From the IMG/VR virus record IMGVR_UViG_3300037258_000147, positions 32,001 to 96,000 of that record: DNA of 64,000 bases; one strand, given 5' to 3'. The notes under the pieces were generated by a model. That model was not told the origin of the DNA. It saw only the letters and a program-made list of their open reading frames with translations, and did no database searches. How positions within the stretch are numbered: the stretch's first letter is position 1; the number at the start of each line of letters is the position of its first letter. The position numbers and the translations under genes were made by a program. Origin of the DNA: a virus. Positions 18,475-48,870 of this stretch are shown piece by piece.

Positions 18475-18553
18475 TGGTCCCCGAAGGGTGAATTGAACAC
18501 CCGATCTTTCGATTATCGGTCGAATGCTTTAAGCCAACTAAGCTATTCGGGGA
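18475..18553 (-). tRNA. tRNA-Ile(GAT)
   Basis: TTCGA-CCGATAA-TCGAA; C33; CCA end. Confidence 0.85.
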
Positions 18554-18631
18554 TGGTACCAGAGACTGGATTCGAACCAGTGAAATTTTCTTTGTAGGAG
18601 AAACGGTTTAGACCACTCACACCACTCTGGC
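18554..18631 (-). tRNA. tRNA-Val(TAC)
   Basis: TTTCT-CCTACAA-AGAAA; C33; CCA end. Confidence 0.85.
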
Positions 18632-19953: not shown

Positions 19954-20394
19954 TTACGGTATTGTGGTTACGGTAACAGTAACTGTTGTAGTAGTTCCAC
20001 TTGGGGTAGAAGGAACGCCTGGAGTTCCGGGGACTACTACGAAAGCTGGAGCAGAAGAACCGCTTACTGCCGATGCTTGTTGAGTTTGAACTACGTAACA
20101 ATAACTCGTTCCTGATGTTACGGATGAATCGACATATGCGGTTGCCTGCGGAGCAGAAACCCCAACTGAAGAATAAGACGACGCAGTTAGTGGGCAAGTT
20201 GTTCCGGTAACTGGGGTTTTAGAAACCAGAAAAGTACAAGGTGCCGAAGTGCTGCATCCGGACCAACCAGGGGAAGCAGCAGGAACTGTCCAACTCAAAT
20301 TAACCTGAAAAGAAGTCTGAGTTATCTGAGACTCGGCAGAACTTCCAAACACCAGCAGTCCAGCAAAAACCACAAACAGGAATATCTTCTTCAC
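19954..20394 (-). CDS. Secreted fibronectin type III-like protein
   Basis: Likely GTG start at 20394, signal peptide, VNLSWT...YVD..V..G..YCYVV. Confidence 0.7.
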   Translation of the reverse strand: MKKIFLFVVFAGLLVFGSSAESQITQTSFQVNLSWTVPAASPGWSGCSTSAPCTFLVSKTPVTGTTCPLTASSYSSVGVSAPQATAYVDSSVTSGTSYCYVVQTQQASAVSGSSAPAFVVVPGTPGVPSTPSGTTTTVTVTVTTIP

Positions 20395-20437
20395 GTGTTT
20401 TAGCCTTTCATGTCGTTCAAAATTCTTGAATATCGAA

Positions 20438-20529
20438 TGGTGGGCGACGAGGGAATCGAACCCGTCTGGCATCTCTCATCTAGAGACTACAGGGTTTATA
20501 AGGCCCCGCCCCGTCCTACGGCATCGCCC
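20438..20529 (-). tRNA. 8/4 allo-tRNA-like RNA, anticodon TAT
   Basis: 8-bp acceptor GGGCGATG/CGTCGCCC, D arm CCGT-AGG-ACGG, long variable arm, short T stem, ACCA end. Confidence 0.7.
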
Positions 20530-20550: not shown

Positions 20551-20621
20551 TGGTCCCGAAGCGTGGAATCAAACCACTCACCTGGTCTTATGAGAACCAG
20601 TGCTGAATCATCAGCCTCGGG
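20551..20621 (-). tRNA. Compact 8/4 tRNA, anticodon CAT
   Basis: CCCGAGGC/GCTTCGGG acceptor, 6-bp anticodon stem, GTGG/CCAC T stem, 71 nt. Confidence 0.7.
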
Positions 20622-22674: not shown

Positions 22675-22745
22675 TGGAGCCGATGTACGGAGTTCAACCG
22701 TCAGGAACTCTTTACAGGAGAGTGCCGCTTGCGAAGCACATCGGC
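22675..22745 (-). tRNA. Compact 8/4 tRNA, anticodon TGT (Thr)
   Basis: Perfect 8-bp GCCGATGT/ACATCGGC, D arm GCTT-CGC-AAGC, T stem ACGG/CCGT, 71 nt. Confidence 0.75.
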
Positions 22746-24592: not shown

Positions 24593-24669
24593 TGGTAGGG
24601 ATGGTGAGGCTCTAACTCACTAGGACGTGGGTGAAGGCCACGGCACTCGAACACTTTGTATTCATCCCC
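24593..24669 (-). tRNA. tRNA-Glu(TTC)
   Basis: CGTGG-CCTTCAC-CCACG; C33; divergent D and T loops. Confidence 0.75.
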
Positions 24670-25514: not shown

Positions 25515-25589
25515 TGGTAGCCTACCAGAGAATCAAACTCTGTTCTCGATCTTGAGAAAATCGCATCCTAATCAGTAGAAGAGTAGGCC
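25515..25589 (-). tRNA. tRNA-Glu(CTC)
   Basis: CGATT-TTCTCAA-GATCG; CCA end. Confidence 0.85.
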
Positions 25590-25713: not shown

Positions 25714-25791
25714 TGGTTGCGGCTCTCGGGAGTTGAACCCGGTATCCCAAGGGTATGAGTCTTGGATGGTCATCCGTTCCACTCAGCCGCA
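25714..25791 (-). tRNA. tRNA-Met(CAT), initiator-like acceptor stem
   Basis: TGCGGCT/AGCCGCA-ACCA; CAAGA-CTCATAC-CCTTG. Confidence 0.78.
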
Positions 25792-26745: not shown

Positions 26746-26833
26746 TGGCGGAAGATGAAGTAATCGAAACCTTGTCCATTTAATGGACAGCATCGGGTTC
26801 GAGCCGATTTGACCGCCTTGGTCGCCATCTTCC
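26746..26833 (-). tRNA. tRNA-Ser(CGA), 8/4-type
   Basis: GGAAGATG/CATCTTCC acceptor; ATCGG-CTCGAAC-CCGAT; variable arm is the GTCC-N7-GGAC palindrome. Confidence 0.8.
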
Positions 26834-27490: not shown

Positions 27491-27566
27491 TGGTCCCCGC
27501 GCCCAGATTCGAACTGGGAAAATTACTGGGTTTGAGCCAGTCGCTCTGCCGTTTCGCTACGCGGGG
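27491..27566 (-). tRNA. tRNA-Leu(CAA), short variable loop
   Basis: ACTGG-CTCAAAC-CCAGT; C1-G72, A73. Confidence 0.85.
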
Positions 27567-27743: not shown

Positions 27744-27818
27744 TGGTGCGATAGGAGGGACTCGAACCCTCAGACGCTGGGTTTTAAATCCAGATGATTT
27801 GCCATTCTCTACTATCGC
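27744..27818 (-). tRNA. tRNA-Leu(TAA), short variable loop
   Basis: CTGGA-TTTAAAA-CCCAG; ACCA end. Confidence 0.85.
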
Positions 27819-31261: not shown

Positions 31262-31603
31262 TCAGGCAACATGCTCTAATTCTATTTTTTCTATTTTTAG
31301 ATTCTCGGGGGCCATCATCCGGTCTACCAGTTCGTCTATGTTCTTCCACCTCCCCAAACGCTTCAGGGACTCTAATCTGTGCCATGCTTTGAAAGTAGGA
31401 GACTCTACACATTTAAGAAAAGCCGCTTCCTTGTTCTTGCGTTGATCTCGACCGTCTCTGTGCTCGGCCCGGGCTCCGGATTCGGGATGGATACATCGGA
31501 CTCCGTTCTGCTTGGCGTTTCGGTGCTGACCGCCGTTACCTCCAGTGCAGAAGGTCTGAAACTCGAAGTTTTTTGCGGTCAAAGAAAATAATAGAGTTTT
31601 CAT
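31262..31603 (-). CDS. Peptide chain release factor-like (RF-1 GGQ domain) peptidyl-tRNA hydrolase
   Basis: GGNGGQHRN....VRCIHPESG......R.Q..NK..AF. Confidence 0.88.
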   Translation of the reverse strand: MKTLLFSLTAKNFEFQTFCTGGNGGQHRNAKQNGVRCIHPESGARAEHRDGRDQRKNKEAAFLKCVESPTFKAWHRLESLKRLGRWKNIDELVDRMMAPENLKIEKIELEHVA

Positions 31604-45660: not shown

Positions 45661-47849
45661 TGGACAAAGTGTGGTTGGACTACGAAAGCCGAAGTACGGT
45701 TTCTCTAGAAGAAAAAGGATTGGATAATTACGTCAAGGGGCCTACTCAGGTCCTGCTTGCGGCCTACGCCTTTAATGACTTGGCTCCTAAGCTGTGGCAA
45801 CCACACCTTAGCCCAGAGATGCCTAAGGACCTGAAAGACGCCCTACTCGACCCCTTCATGCAAGTCTGGAGTTGGAACACGAGTTTCGAACGACAGGTAA
45901 CCAAGCACGTTTTAGGCATTGACAAGCCGATTGAAGAATGGCGGGACCCGATGTGCAATGCTCGGTATCTGGGACTTCCTGGATATCTGGAAGACGCCGG
46001 AAAAATCCTCGGGCTCAAAGACTCCCAAGCCAAAATCAAAGATGGTAGCCGACTAATAAAGTTGTTTTGCGAGCCTGTTGATTCGGGTGGCCGAGAAACT
46101 CTGTTTGGAATCTCAGAGCCGACATTCAATAGCTGGCACACCCACCCAAAGGATTGGGAATTGTTCTGTAAGTATTGCAAACAAGATGTGGTTGCGGAAA
46201 GAGTGCTTGCCCAAAAAATGTCGAAGTTTCCTCTTCCTCAGGAGGAACTAGAGACTTGGTTCTTGGATCAGCATATTAATGCACGGGGATGGCCGGTAGA
46301 TTTACCCACGGTCGAAGGTGCTCGGAAAATTGTCGAATTAGAATTGAAACCCTTAGTAGCCCGTCTGAAAGAACTAAGTGGATTGGACAATGTAAATTCT
46401 AGAAACCAAATCCTGGAATGGGTTTCGGAGCGCGGATACGTCTTCTCAAGTCTTGGTAAAGATTTTGTTGCGCGCGCGCTTGCTGGGGAATGTAATCTAA
46501 CCCCAGAGTGCCGAGAGGTTCTCGAAATCCGAGGACAAACCGCAAAATCTAGTGTGTCTAAGTACACAGCTTTAGCCGATATGACCTCCTCAGACGCTAG
46601 GATACGTCACCAGTACACCTATTACGGGGCACATACAGGCCGATGGGCCGCGCACGGCGTAAACATGGGTAATTTGTTTAAGCCGACAAAAGAAGTTGAA
46701 AATAAACTGGGCTTGGCCGTTAATCTTGTCCGAAAAATGGACTTTGAGGCAATACGAAAAGAATTTAGCAAGCCTATGGAAGTCGCTGCTTCGGTCCAGC
46801 GGTCGGCCTTTCGAGCCCCTGAGGGTTTTAAATTCGTGTGGGCGGACCTCGCGGGCATCGAAAACCGGGGGCTAATGTATCTCTCTCATTGCGAGGCCCT
46901 AAAGAAGGTCTACGAAGGAAAATTTACCTACTACGGACCCGACTGTCCAGAAAAAGAAATATTAAACGGACAAGAGTTCGCGCTAGACCCGTACCTAATG
47001 TTTGCTGTTCGCATGTTTAATATGAGCTACCGCGATTTATGGATAGAGTGGAAAATCAAGGGGGACAAGACCAAGAGAGATTTGTGCAAAGCTCCTGTAC
47101 TGGGCGGAGGATACGCTCTCGGAGCCGGAGAAGAAGAGATAGATAAAAAAACTGGACTACCATACTGGACCGGTTTGATGGGCTACGGAAGAAAAATGGG
47201 AATCGAAATCCCCCACGACTTAGCCGAGCAATCTATCAAGGTTCTCCGCGAAGAATGGAACGAAGTTGTCTGGCTCTGGAAAGACATGGAAAAAGCCTTC
47301 GCATTTGCTGTCCGGCATCCTGGTCATTTAACCGGGGTTGGGTTGCCTCATACCAAGCGAGAGGAGGAATATTTCGAGGAAAAGGGCCGGAAAATTTATG
47401 AGCCGATAATCTCGTTTCTGTGTCATGGTGCCAAAATCCTTGAAATGATTCTGCCGTCTGGACGGTCTTTATTTTACTTTGACCCCCGAGTAGCGTTTGA
47501 AGAAAAAGAATGGAAGGGAAGAAAATACCAGCAAGACACGCTGTACTACAAATCCAAGGACCCGAAGACCAAACAATGGGTGGAAATGGATACGTTTGGG
47601 GGCCACTTGGTTGAAAATGGGGATCAGGCTATATGCCGAGATGTGCTGGTCCATGGGATGAAAAAAGCGGATAAAATGGGATTTGAAATATGCGGGTCTA
47701 CATATGACGAGGTGATTACCTTAGTTCCTTTAAACAGTCCTCTTGGGGTAAAAGAACTTTGCGAGTGCCTTACCGACCCGCCTCTGTTTTGTGGACTAGA
47801 TTTGCCGTTAGCCGCCGAAGGAATTGAGGATTTCATCTACCATAAATAA
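45660..47849 (+). CDS. DNA polymerase, family A
   Basis: Exonuclease DYE and YCKQDV; HTGRW; motif A DLAGIE; motif B R..K...LG.GY; motif C TYDE. Confidence 0.9.
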   Translation: MDKVWLDYESRSTVSLEEKGLDNYVKGPTQVLLAAYAFNDLAPKLWQPHLSPEMPKDLKDALLDPFMQVWSWNTSFERQVTKHVLGIDKPIEEWRDPMCNARYLGLPGYLEDAGKILGLKDSQAKIKDGSRLIKLFCEPVDSGGRETLFGISEPTFNSWHTHPKDWELFCKYCKQDVVAERVLAQKMSKFPLPQEELETWFLDQHINARGWPVDLPTVEGARKIVELELKPLVARLKELSGLDNVNSRNQILEWVSERGYVFSSLGKDFVARALAGECNLTPECREVLEIRGQTAKSSVSKYTALADMTSSDARIRHQYTYYGAHTGRWAAHGVNMGNLFKPTKEVENKLGLAVNLVRKMDFEAIRKEFSKPMEVAASVQRSAFRAPEGFKFVWADLAGIENRGLMYLSHCEALKKVYEGKFTYYGPDCPEKEILNGQEFALDPYLMFAVRMFNMSYRDLWIEWKIKGDKTKRDLCKAPVLGGGYALGAGEEEIDKKTGLPYWTGLMGYGRKMGIEIPHDLAEQSIKVLREEWNEVVWLWKDMEKAFAFAVRHPGHLTGVGLPHTKREEEYFEEKGRKIYEPIISFLCHGAKILEMILPSGRSLFYFDPRVAFEEKEWKGRKYQQDTLYYKSKDPKTKQWVEMDTFGGHLVENGDQAICRDVLVHGMKKADKMGFEICGSTYDEVITLVPLNSPLGVKELCECLTDPPLFCGLDLPLAAEGIEDFIYHK

Positions 47850-47907
47850 TCCAGATCGCGGATTGACAACTCGAAACATGTGGTATAATGCGAACAAAGG
47901 AGAAAAA

Positions 47908-48870
47908 GTGGAACATATCCCTTTCCCCGAAATTCATCAATTTCGGAACACGATTAGAACTGTGCGAGAACGAGCAGAATGCGACGGAGTTCCTCTTCCA
48001 ATCATTACTTTTGTGGGATCGGTGAAATTGCACGGAACTAACGCTTCGATTGTGTTTCCCGAATCGGGAGGGTACTATTGTCAGTCTCGCTCTCACGTAA
48101 TCACACCAGGACAAGACAACGCTGGATTTGCTCGTTGGGTCGAAAACAACAAAGAATTGTTCGAGCGTCTAGAGAAGTCCGGAGTGATTCTATATGGAGA
48201 GTGGTGCGGGCAAGGAATTCAAAAGGGCGTGGCCATATCACATATGCCGAAGAAATTCATCGTGTTTTCTGTCCGAAAACTGGACAATTTGTCTTGGTTT
48301 TCCAAACTGGGGGTCTGCGTCCTGCTGGAAGGGTTACTTTGTATCTATGATTATCCAAATTGGACCTTGGATATTGACTTTTCTCGTTCCGAGGACTCTC
48401 AGAATCGCTTGGTAGAATTGACCACTGCTGTCGAAACCGAGTGCCCTGTAGGAAAGGCTTTCGGGGTTTCTGGAGTAGGAGAAGGCGTAGTTTGGTGGCC
48501 TGAATCTCATCCGACATTCAACACCGAGGGGTTGGCCTTCAAGGTAAAGGGAGAAAAACATTCCGAATCCAAAGTAAAGAGTCTAGCTTCCGTGGATGTG
48601 GAAAAATTGGAAACCGTCAAGGAATTGGTAAACACAATCATAACCGATCACCGTTTGGAAAAGAAACTAGATTCTCTCCAAGAGCGAGGCATTTCTTTTG
48701 ACATCAAAAATACTGGGCAGTTTCTAAAGCTGATAGGGGCCGACGTTTGGAAGGAAGAATCTGACACCATTCTGGCCTCTGGATTCAAAGAAAGCGAGAT
48801 CATGGGAGCCGTCCAGAAACGGGCGAAACAGTGGTGGATGGAGCAACTAGCGAATGTGGCCGTGGTCTAA
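47908..48870 (+). CDS. RNA ligase (Rnl2-like)
   Basis: KLHGTN, YGEWCG.GIQ, GEGVVW, FKVK; GTG start after AAGGAG. Confidence 0.82.
   Translation: MEHIPFPEIHQFRNTIRTVRERAECDGVPLPIITFVGSVKLHGTNASIVFPESGGYYCQSRSHVITPGQDNAGFARWVENNKELFERLEKSGVILYGEWCGQGIQKGVAISHMPKKFIVFSVRKLDNLSWFSKLGVCVLLEGLLCIYDYPNWTLDIDFSRSEDSQNRLVELTTAVETECPVGKAFGVSGVGEGVVWWPESHPTFNTEGLAFKVKGEKHSESKVKSLASVDVEKLETVKELVNTIITDHRLEKKLDSLQERGISFDIKNTGQFLKLIGADVWKEESDTILASGFKESEIMGAVQKRAKQWWMEQLANVAVV

Follow-up and report, generated by a model that had tools for sequence, protein, structure and literature searches.

A phage tRNA(UAU) with an extra arm: a member of a conserved family that may decode AUA as isoleucine

Introduction

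For most bacteria, AUA is the only sense codon whose reading requires a dedicated and essential modification (lysidine). What should we make of a tRNA-like gene in a phage whose anticodon, UAU, would pair with AUA as it stands? The gene in question lies on the minus strand at positions 20438-20529 of a stretch of 64,000 nucleotides (nt) that we call the window. The window is bases 32001-96000 of the 104,680-bp IMG/VR record IMGVR_UViG_3300037258_000147, whose estimated completeness is 97%. A preliminary description of the window took the gene for an allo-tRNA-like gene with an 8-bp acceptor stem and suggested that it either decodes AUA without the lysidine enzyme TilS or deliberately mistranslates AUA as serine or leucine. 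Here, we argue that it is a genuine tRNA gene from a structured family that is apparently undescribed, that AUA evolves as an isoleucine codon in this phage lineage, and that the tRNA is probably a functional, isoleucine-charged, lysidine-independent decoder of AUA.

A conserved family of tRNA(UAU) genes

Standard tools overlook this gene. Default ARAGORN finds 28 tRNAs in the window and none at 20438-20529, and an Rfam scan gave no match of the gene to the tRNA model (RF00005) at E ≤ 1. With the -ps80 option, ARAGORN does call a tRNA-Ile(tat) there, among 53 calls that include obvious false ones. The sole Rfam match is to tRNA-Sec (RF01852), at 24.1 bits as compared to a gathering score of 47 (E 0.4). 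We rejected a tRNA-Sec identity, as the score is below the threshold and the anticodon is UAU rather than UCA. The minimum free energy (MFE) structure from RNAfold is a five-arm cloverleaf (-35.1 kcal/mol; Table 1). By itself, without homologs, the locus would be a doubtful tRNA.

The homologs change this picture. A 17-base core of the anticodon arm matched 10 loci in IMG/VR, of which 8 contain full-length look-alikes. These differ from the window copy in the acceptor, D, extra-arm, and T stems. Seven of the eight lie among tRNA genes of the same strand, and the eighth is on a short contig without any tRNA called by ARAGORN. At its default settings, this program does not call any of the eight look-alikes themselves. 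Two loci (L004 and L008) are syntenic with the window: the order is Phe, Pro, Pro, Arg, Trp, CAU, UAU, Lys, Lys, and then Ile(GAU) and Gly. The shorter order Pro-Arg-Trp-CAU-UAU-Lys is common to related phages and to one contig from an acidobacterial metagenome-assembled genome (MAG). The same 17-mer matched 47 loci in a metagenome collection, 21 of them with family members, and 9 loci in GTDB genomes, 3 of them with members, all from Acidobacteriota MAGs. When the anticodon in the scaffold pattern was left free (NNN), there were 81 matching loci, and a reading by eye, rather than a model search, found the extra-arm scaffold with TAT only; the other tRNA-like matches (CTA, TCT, and AAA) are ordinary short tRNAs, and the rest are coding or unrelated DNA. 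The UAU region had no blastn match among the INPHARED phages.

A covariance model built from the look-alikes identified more divergent members in whole records of phages with related portal genes. Strong matches occur in 9 of these 21 records, including both of the records that are at least 90% complete. The two complete portal relatives have 27 and 19 tRNA hits, and three larger relatives without a match have just 0-2 tRNA genes.

Phage contigs, metagenomes, and Acidobacteriota genomes contributed 36 matches to our family alignment, of which 25 are distinct in sequence. In the alignment, 96.9% of the cells are paired, and 24 of the 27 pairs have changed on both sides. The covariation score is 0.607, as compared to 0.166 in shuffles (0 of 500 reached 0.607) and at most 0.102 if the partners are slid. 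The alignment was fitted to a covariance model, which favors structure; RNAalifold independently gives the same five arms, with a 7-bp acceptor. A leave-one-out model (R3, from 23 relatives and excluding the window copy) matches exactly 20438-20529 with 79.8 bits (E 3.7e-18), and its next-best matches in the window are ordinary tRNAs with no more than 28.3 bits. Because the homologs form a structured family, the match is far more than chance, and, judging from this covariation, the locus is a genuine tRNA gene whose RNA is under selection.

The individual arms are well supported. The seven acceptor pairs have 99.4% of cells paired across the 25 distinct sequences, with double-sided changes in five of the seven. 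In the D stem, all four pairs covary, 100% of cells are paired, and the stem has 4 bp in every row; the D loops of the relatives have 3-5 nt, usually with GG. All five modelled pairs of the anticodon stem covary, and the extra C-G pair at 26-44 is present in 23 of 25 rows, while the innermost pair is variable across the family (C.A, U-A, G-C, A.A, or C.U). In the extra arm, all six modelled pairs covary and the stem ranges from 4 to 6 bp. The anticodon loop (CUUAUAA at 20496-20502) is nearly fixed: U33, U34, A35, U36, and A37 are invariant and A38 is present in 24 of 25 rows. Position 73 is A in 22 rows and C in the other 3, and CCA is encoded in 24 of 25. So we define the family by a 7/5 acceptor/T branch, one linker nucleotide, a 4-bp D stem, the UAU loop, a hairpin with an N-G-A-Y-N tip, a linker of 4-5 nt, and CCA, and the window copy has every one of these features. 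The preliminary description was right about the UAU anticodon, the CCGU/ACGG stem with a 3-nt loop, and A73, all on the minus strand, as well as about the long variable arm and the extended anticodon stem. The gene does not have the class I shape of an ordinary tRNA-Ile, with a variable loop of 4-5 nt: its variable region is a 17-nt hairpin plus linkers.

Table 1. Features of the tRNA(UAU) gene and the adjoining tRNA(CAU), in window coordinates
Feature	Positions	Strand	Description and basis
Whole tRNA(UAU) gene with extra arm	20438-20529	-	92 nt including encoded CCA; same ends from the leave-one-out covariance model and from ARAGORN -ps80
Acceptor stem, 5' strand (positions 1-7)	20523-20529	-	pairs with 20442-20448; family pairing
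G8	20522	-	sole nucleotide separating the acceptor and D stems; potential eighth acceptor pair with C at 20449
Mini D arm	20511-20521	-	4-bp stem CCGU/ACGG, 3-nt loop AGG; covariation
Anticodon arm	20489-20509	-	includes the extra C-G pair at 26-44 and a C.A mismatch beside the loop; loop CUUAUAA
Anticodon UAU	20498-20500	-	direct reading; invariant in 25/25 family rows
Extra (variable-region) arm	20471-20487	-	6-bp stem, loop AGAUG, G-A-U tip at 20478-20480
Linker, extra arm to T stem	20467-20470	-	4 nt; relatives have 4-5 nt, mostly ending in CGG
T arm	20449-20466	-	5-bp stem with one bulged C (20464), loop UUCGAUU
Discriminator A73 and encoded CCA	20438-20441	-	
Unusual tRNA(CAU), directly upstream of the UAU gene	20551-20621	-	by-eye reading and folding

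Could the window copy be a decaying, nonfunctional one, that is, a tRNA pseudogene in a fast-evolving array? It is missed by default ARAGORN and by the Rfam tRNA model, its stems contain a C.A mismatch and a bulge, its D loop is minimal, and a degenerate paralog of the family does exist in an acidobacterial contig (L153:2160-2253). However, the same "defects" are found in L151, whose acceptor, D, and extra-arm stems differ from those of the window copy by fully compensated changes. The T-stem bulge in particular occurs at the same place in L151, L117, and L121 (as C) and in L188 (as U), and the unbulged members have perfect 5-bp stems. All of the family's invariant positions are intact in the window copy, and it scored 79.8 bits when it was left out of the model. 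We would be surprised if it were a pseudogene.

The acceptor/T branch and the comparison with allo-tRNAs

The preliminary description had an 8-bp acceptor stem in an 8/4 branch. The first part stands, as the 5' strand can pair with the 3' end over 8 bp, with one G-U pair, but the second does not. In the window copy, the 8-bp acceptor leaves a T stem with 3 bp and a C.U mismatch, or an 8/3 branch of 11 bp. The alternative is 7/5, with a T stem of GA(C)GGG/CCCUC and a bulged C. Because these two folds are nearly isoenergetic in the window copy (-34.2 kcal/mol for 7/5 and -35.1 kcal/mol for 8/3), energy does not decide between them. Across the family, most members have A at position 8, and just 8 of 24 distinct sequences could form the 8-65 pair. 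Seven of these eight can also pair 49-65; the eighth is the window copy, which can do so only via the bulged C. As aligned, 49-65 is kept in 22 of 25 rows, and the remaining three are bulged copies. On the evidence of the alignment, the family's branch is 7/5, not 8/4. Seven plus five pairs give the canonical 12-bp branch that EF-Tu needs (introduction of Mukai et al., PMC5389517).

The shape of the branch matters for one of the alternatives. If the gene were an allo-tRNA-like 8/4 missense tRNA, its long arm would be taken by seryl- or leucyl-tRNA synthetase (SerRS or LeuRS), and serine or leucine would be inserted at AUA. There is something to be said for this: the arm is long, SerRS and LeuRS ignore the anticodon, A73 is compatible with leucine identity in E. 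coli, the MFE structure of the window copy has an 8-bp acceptor, and the weak Rfam match is to tRNA-Sec. Also, allo-tRNA(UAU) is the commonest group of allo-tRNAs (PMC5389517), and a nematode tRNA-Ile(UAU) with a variable (V) arm is leucylated in vitro (PMC3333845).

Nevertheless, the proposed kinship with allo-tRNAs did not hold up. The family shares the long V arm and the lengthened anticodon stem with allo-tRNAs, but it has neither their 8/4 or 9/3 split nor their tRNA-Sec-like D arm nor G73/U73. Instead, the branch is 7/5 (with 8-65 possible in a third of the sequences, and nearly all of those able to pair 49-65 as well), the D stem has 4 bp instead of being long, and position 73 is A or C. 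Furthermore, the extra arm is followed by a linker of 4-5 nt rather than abutting the T stem as in allo-tRNAs. This linker is longer than the usual 3' flank of the variable arms of serine, leucine, and tyrosine tRNAs. When we compared the anticodon-arm motifs with the supplement table of Mukai et al. (PMC5389517), no allo-tRNA(UAU) entry in that table matched; this sequence type is absent from it, and the only two partial motif matches have a different, GGAGGGCG-type scaffold.

The meaning of AUA in the phage

If the phage were using this tRNA to put serine or leucine at AUA, then its ATA codons should not align like isoleucine codons. We compared 26 crude open reading frames (ORFs) around the portal gene to 33 related loci with tblastn, using relatives of at most 90% identity. 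At the ATA codons of these structural genes of the phage (59 codons and 879 cells), the relatives have I at.37, V at.16, L at.12, and ATA at.07. This is close to what is seen for ATT (I.42, V.18, L.13) and ATC (I.53, V.17, L.12). In contrast, the six leucine codons align with L at.58-.65, and the serine codons align with S at.35-.42.

Conserved columns tell the same story; we defined these as columns with at least 80% agreement among six or more relatives, not counting the relatives' own ATA codons. Of 16 conserved ATA columns, 11 are I, 3 are V, 1 is M, 1 is T, and none are L or S. True leucine codons give L in 7-31 of 10-32 columns; CTA, for example, falls on L in 22 of 23. The valine share is similar for ATT (2 of 24) and ATC (2 of 16). 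So, to the extent that alignments reveal it, AUA is evolving as an isoleucine codon in this phage lineage. Because ATA aligns like ATT and ATC and has no leucine or serine columns, programmed reading as serine or leucine is not supported, and together with the features of the family this makes a serine- or leucine-inserting tRNA very improbable.

The preliminary description had also proposed comparing AUA usage in the phage and its host. Across 104 crude ORFs of the phage, ATA stands at 12.5 per 1000 codons and makes up 24% of the isoleucine codons. Three acidobacterial contigs with family members, which may represent its hosts, have 1.5-3.9 per 1000 (also from crude ORFs). Thus, usage is 3-8 times higher in the phage than in these contigs.

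The GAY-tipped extra arm

The most unusual feature of the family is the tip of the extra arm. Its loop has G and then A in 25 of 25 rows, followed by U in 22 rows or C in 3, and four further acidobacterial copies have GAU (three) or GAC (one). Taken as seven nucleotides, the tip reads Y-N-G-A-Y-N-R. This resembles the anticodon loop of tRNA-Ile(GAU), but the equivalent of position 33 is A, C, or G and not U. Reading the alignment by eye, we found no consistent complement of GAY in the T loop, the D loop, or the linkers.

The extra arm may be a handle for isoleucyl-tRNA synthetase (IleRS), and its conserved tip may offer G-A-U to that enzyme. The anticodon is a strong determinant for IleRS (Giege and Eriani 2023, PMC9976931). 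E. coli IleRS charges tRNA-Ile2(UAU) poorly, and the IleRS of Mycoplasma mobile needed a special arginine to do so (Taniguchi et al. 2013, PMC3575796). An added identity element is plausible in this tRNA, given how poorly ordinary bacterial IleRS reads UAU. The extra arm is the size of an anticodon arm, and on its 3' side it joins the T stem via 4-5 nt, like a class I variable loop; with this size and this link, it could stand in for the anticodon arm. A speculative extension, which we think is doubtful but deserves to be stated, is that the tRNA is "two-headed": the extra arm would show GAU to the host's IleRS while the UAU arm faces the ribosome, so that identity and decoding would reside on separate hairpins. 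If so, then the AUA decoder that phages and mobile arrays deliver would work without TilS and without an adapted synthetase. The GAC tips, the variable length of the stem, and the non-conserved position 37 weaken the case for a strict mimic of the isoleucine anticodon.

As GAC is a valine anticodon, we also considered an AUA decoder that is charged with another hydrophobic amino acid: with valine, if the GAY tip or A35 and A73 attract ValRS, or with methionine by a different route. A73 and A35 are common to the valine, isoleucine, and methionine identities (PMC9976931), and 3 of the 16 conserved ATA columns are valine. But the ATT and ATC codons of the phage show the same share of valine columns, and 22 of the 25 tips are GAU. 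It seems most unlikely that valine or methionine is the amino acid.

Host enzymes and bacterial carriers

Among the phage's proteins, there is neither a PF01171 gene (the TilS-type PP-loop family) nor a PF00133 gene (class Ia synthetases of the IleRS type), so the phage depends on its host's enzymes. A UAU anticodon requires no lysidine, which supports the suggestion that the gene could allow AUA to be decoded independently of TilS.

Which bacteria carry the family? We found it in 5 of 151 genomes from one class of Acidobacteria, in a search that scored 27 first-look candidates per genome and whose sensitivity is low. In three of the five, the gene is part of a dense array (21-22 tRNA genes), and there default ARAGORN does call it, as tRNA-Ile(tat). 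One contig from a Granulicella sp. MAG (L201; 21 kb, GC content 61.8%) has a tRNA array in the same gene order as the phage's cluster, while only two phage ORFs, which encode HNH endonucleases, have relatives on it. Phages and bacterial genomes appear to exchange the tRNA array as one unit.

Two other copies have ordinary chromosomal neighborhoods, and their T and D loops are non-canonical. Chromosomal members on Acidobacteriota MAG contigs (L147:1477-1570 and L153:1448-1541) have a T loop of GGCAGCA and a D loop of CAGCC, which may pair with each other. One acidobacterial contig also has a paralog, clearly degenerate, with a CAU anticodon on the extra-arm scaffold; this is L153:2160-2253.

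All five of the carrier genomes have a TilS gene that scores above the curated cut-off. We therefore rejected the idea that the tRNA is a substitute for TilS in these hosts: it adds to the lysidine route rather than replacing it.

The array and its neighborhood

The tRNA array is on the minus strand, at roughly 18.4-27.8 kb in the window. Genes for homing endonucleases (of the T5orf172, HNH, and Endo VII types) are scattered through it. Beside the UAU gene, there are only tRNAs and homing endonucleases, and we found no toxin-antitoxin or transposon genes there. An ORF at 19954-20472 (minus strand) is listed as overlapping the 3' end of the tRNA, but its likely start is an in-frame GTG at 20394, which opens a signal-peptide-like sequence (MKKIFLF...); the ORF does not belong to any Pfam family. 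With that start, the ORF and the tRNA gene would not truly overlap.

The array contains other odd tRNAs. Directly upstream of the UAU gene is a tRNA(CAU) (Table 1) that ARAGORN does not call even with relaxed settings and that matches nothing in Rfam at E ≤ 1. It has homologs upstream of the UAU gene in L117, L119, L120, L121, and L151. In the window and L120 copies, a true 8/4 branch is possible (with C8-G65 and a 4-bp T stem), whereas 7/5 would leave an A.G mismatch; the copies in L117, L119, and L121 are plain 7/5. Candidate identities for this tRNA are methionine and Ile2 (with lysidine). A pair of genes at 18554-18631 and 18475-18552 (both on the minus strand) includes what ARAGORN calls tRNA-Cys(aca), in the place of tRNA-Val(UAC) in a syntenic relative. 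With a 5-bp stem, its loop becomes CCUACAA, which gives a UAC anticodon and C33. The phage's tRNA-Ile(GAU), from the same pair, has the loop CCGAUAA and also has C33, not the near-universal U33. Two tRNAs with leucine anticodons, CAA and UAA (27491-27566 and 27744-27818, both on the minus strand), have 75-76 nt and no long variable arm. Such short "Leu" tRNAs are also present in the acidobacterial array L201 and have been reported for tRNA clusters of mycobacteria (PMC6582537).

Five more tRNA-like genes on the minus strand (24593-24669, 25515-25589, 25718-25790, 22675-22745, and 26746-26833) were identified by relaxed ARAGORN or sub-threshold Rfam matches only; these are Glu UUC, Glu CUC, Met CAU, Thr UGU, and Ser CGA. 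So the array probably contains more than the 28 tRNA genes that are called by default, and we put its size at about 30. Elsewhere, the phage encodes a small protein with an RF-1 domain (similar to ArfB or peptidyl-tRNA hydrolase; 31265-31603, minus strand) and an RNA ligase (47824-48867, plus strand). Both may have some part in rescuing tRNAs or ribosomes while the phage infects its host.

Discussion

We favor the view that the gene encodes a functional phage tRNA that is charged with isoleucine and reads AUA without lysidine, and we consider this to be probable. The tRNA would be transcribed together with the rest of the array. A host enzyme, most likely IleRS, would charge it with isoleucine; one suggestion is that the extra arm serves as the handle. 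Its U34 would then read AUA directly, whereas a CAU-type tRNA-Ile2 depends on TilS for its lysidine. In this way, the phage tRNA would serve a codon that is several times commoner in the phage than in its probable acidobacterial hosts. We infer the charging, any modification of the wobble base, and the role of the extra arm from the comparisons described above.

Several observations weigh against this view. The energy of the fold falls short of significance (z = -0.98; 27 of 200 shuffled sequences were just as stable), and we dropped it as evidence. Given its C.A mismatch by the anticodon loop, its bulged T stem, and its 3-nt D loop, the window copy could be a weak tRNA. The extra arm is not uniform: GAC tips occur in 3 of 25 rows and in 1 of the 4 further copies, and its stem varies from 4 to 6 bp. 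The minor determinants of E. coli IleRS (C4-G69, U12-A23, C29-G41, and G16, D20, and D21 in the D loop; PMC9976931) are not conserved in the family. All five of the acidobacterial carriers have TilS, and the host's tRNA-Ile2(k2C) could do all of the AUA decoding. Our codon test gives the meaning of AUA in the lineage and not the identity of the tRNA that delivers the amino acid, and most of the relatives that we compared probably carry the same tRNA(UAU). Finally, a search for sequencing runs led to a single DNA run (a soil metagenome that is the probable source) and listed no RNA run.

Another possibility is that the RNA is shaped like a tRNA but does not decode. It might be a decoy or sponge for a defense nuclease or toxin that targets tRNAs, or it might be a regulatory or mobile-element RNA; Mukai et al. 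(PMC5389517) proposed such a non-decoding role for allo-tRNA(UAU), and six allo-tRNA(UAU) species that were recoded to CUA were inactive in E. coli. The odd core of the family, with D loops of 3-4 nt and frequent mismatches adjacent to the anticodon loop, might make it a poor substrate for the ribosome. Some chromosomal copies have non-canonical T loops, and the invariant GAY tip suggests a protein partner. On the other hand, the genes are in register within tRNA arrays, they encode CCA, and they have a flawless anticodon loop as well as 12 bp in the acceptor/T branch. They also occur where a phage with high ATA usage would need such a decoder, and the window copy has no toxin-antitoxin or transposon neighbors. 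So a non-decoding role seems unlikely to us.

If our favored reading is correct, then a mobile and widespread tRNA that bypasses lysidine would explain how AUA-rich phages are translated in AUA-poor hosts. The family would also represent a new structural class of elongator tRNA, defined by its five arms, its minimal D arm, and a tip that is conserved and sequence-specific. And if the tip is a handle for a synthetase, it would be a natural precedent for placing identity apart from the anticodon, which would be useful for engineering orthogonal tRNAs. More practically, default ARAGORN and the Rfam tRNA model miss the family in many phage contigs, so AUA decoders are undercounted in inventories of phage tRNAs.

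Comparison with known tRNAs

In the literature on allo-tRNAs, tRNA-Ile(UAU), tRNAs with long or V arms, phage tRNAs, and tRNA arrays, we did not find a description of an extra arm with a GAU tip. Still, the family resembles several known systems in part. With the allo-tRNA(UAU) group (PMC5389517), it shares the UAU anticodon, the long extra arm, the total of five stems, and the short link between the acceptor and D stems. Both groups are found in Acidobacteria and soil metagenomes, both are missed by standard tools, and a D tetraloop is present in many allo-tRNA(UAU) members, much as in our family. But in allo-tRNAs the branch is 8/4 or 9/3, the D stem is long, position 73 is G or U, and the V arm abuts the T stem, while our family has a 7/5 branch, a 4-bp D stem, and A73. 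Also, our family is found in tRNA arrays and has the invariant GAY tip, whereas allo-tRNA(UAU) genes lie beside toxin-antitoxin genes or transposons.

The TilS-independent tRNA-Ile2(UAU) of bacteria, for example that of M. mobile (PMC3575796), is similar in having a CUUAUAA-type loop that is read without lysidine, A73, and presumably the same job, which is to read AUA as isoleucine. The known examples are of the ordinary class I shape, and it is their IleRS that is adapted (with Arg865) to read U34. In contrast, our family has the GAY-tipped hairpin and a mini D arm and coexists with TilS in its bacterial carriers.

In its genetic context, the closest parallel is the tRNA-Ile(TAT) of Mycobacterium mucogenicum (Behra et al. 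2019, PMC6582537), which is in a horizontally transferred cluster with adjoining HNH genes and coexists with TilS. As in the phage array, it is accompanied by leucine tRNAs with short variable loops. This tRNA-Ile(TAT) is expressed; the paper does not discuss its structure. Because its alignment spans 76 columns, as inferred from the coordinates of the drawing in the supplement, it seems to lack the extra arm.

Lastly, the nematode V-arm tRNA-Ile(UAU) (a nev-tRNA; Hamashima et al. 2012, PMC3333845) combines a class II shape with a UAU anticodon, as our family does. But nev-tRNAs are eukaryotic, are derived from leucine tRNAs, and are leucylated in vitro, whereas the AUA columns of the phage show no sign of leucine.

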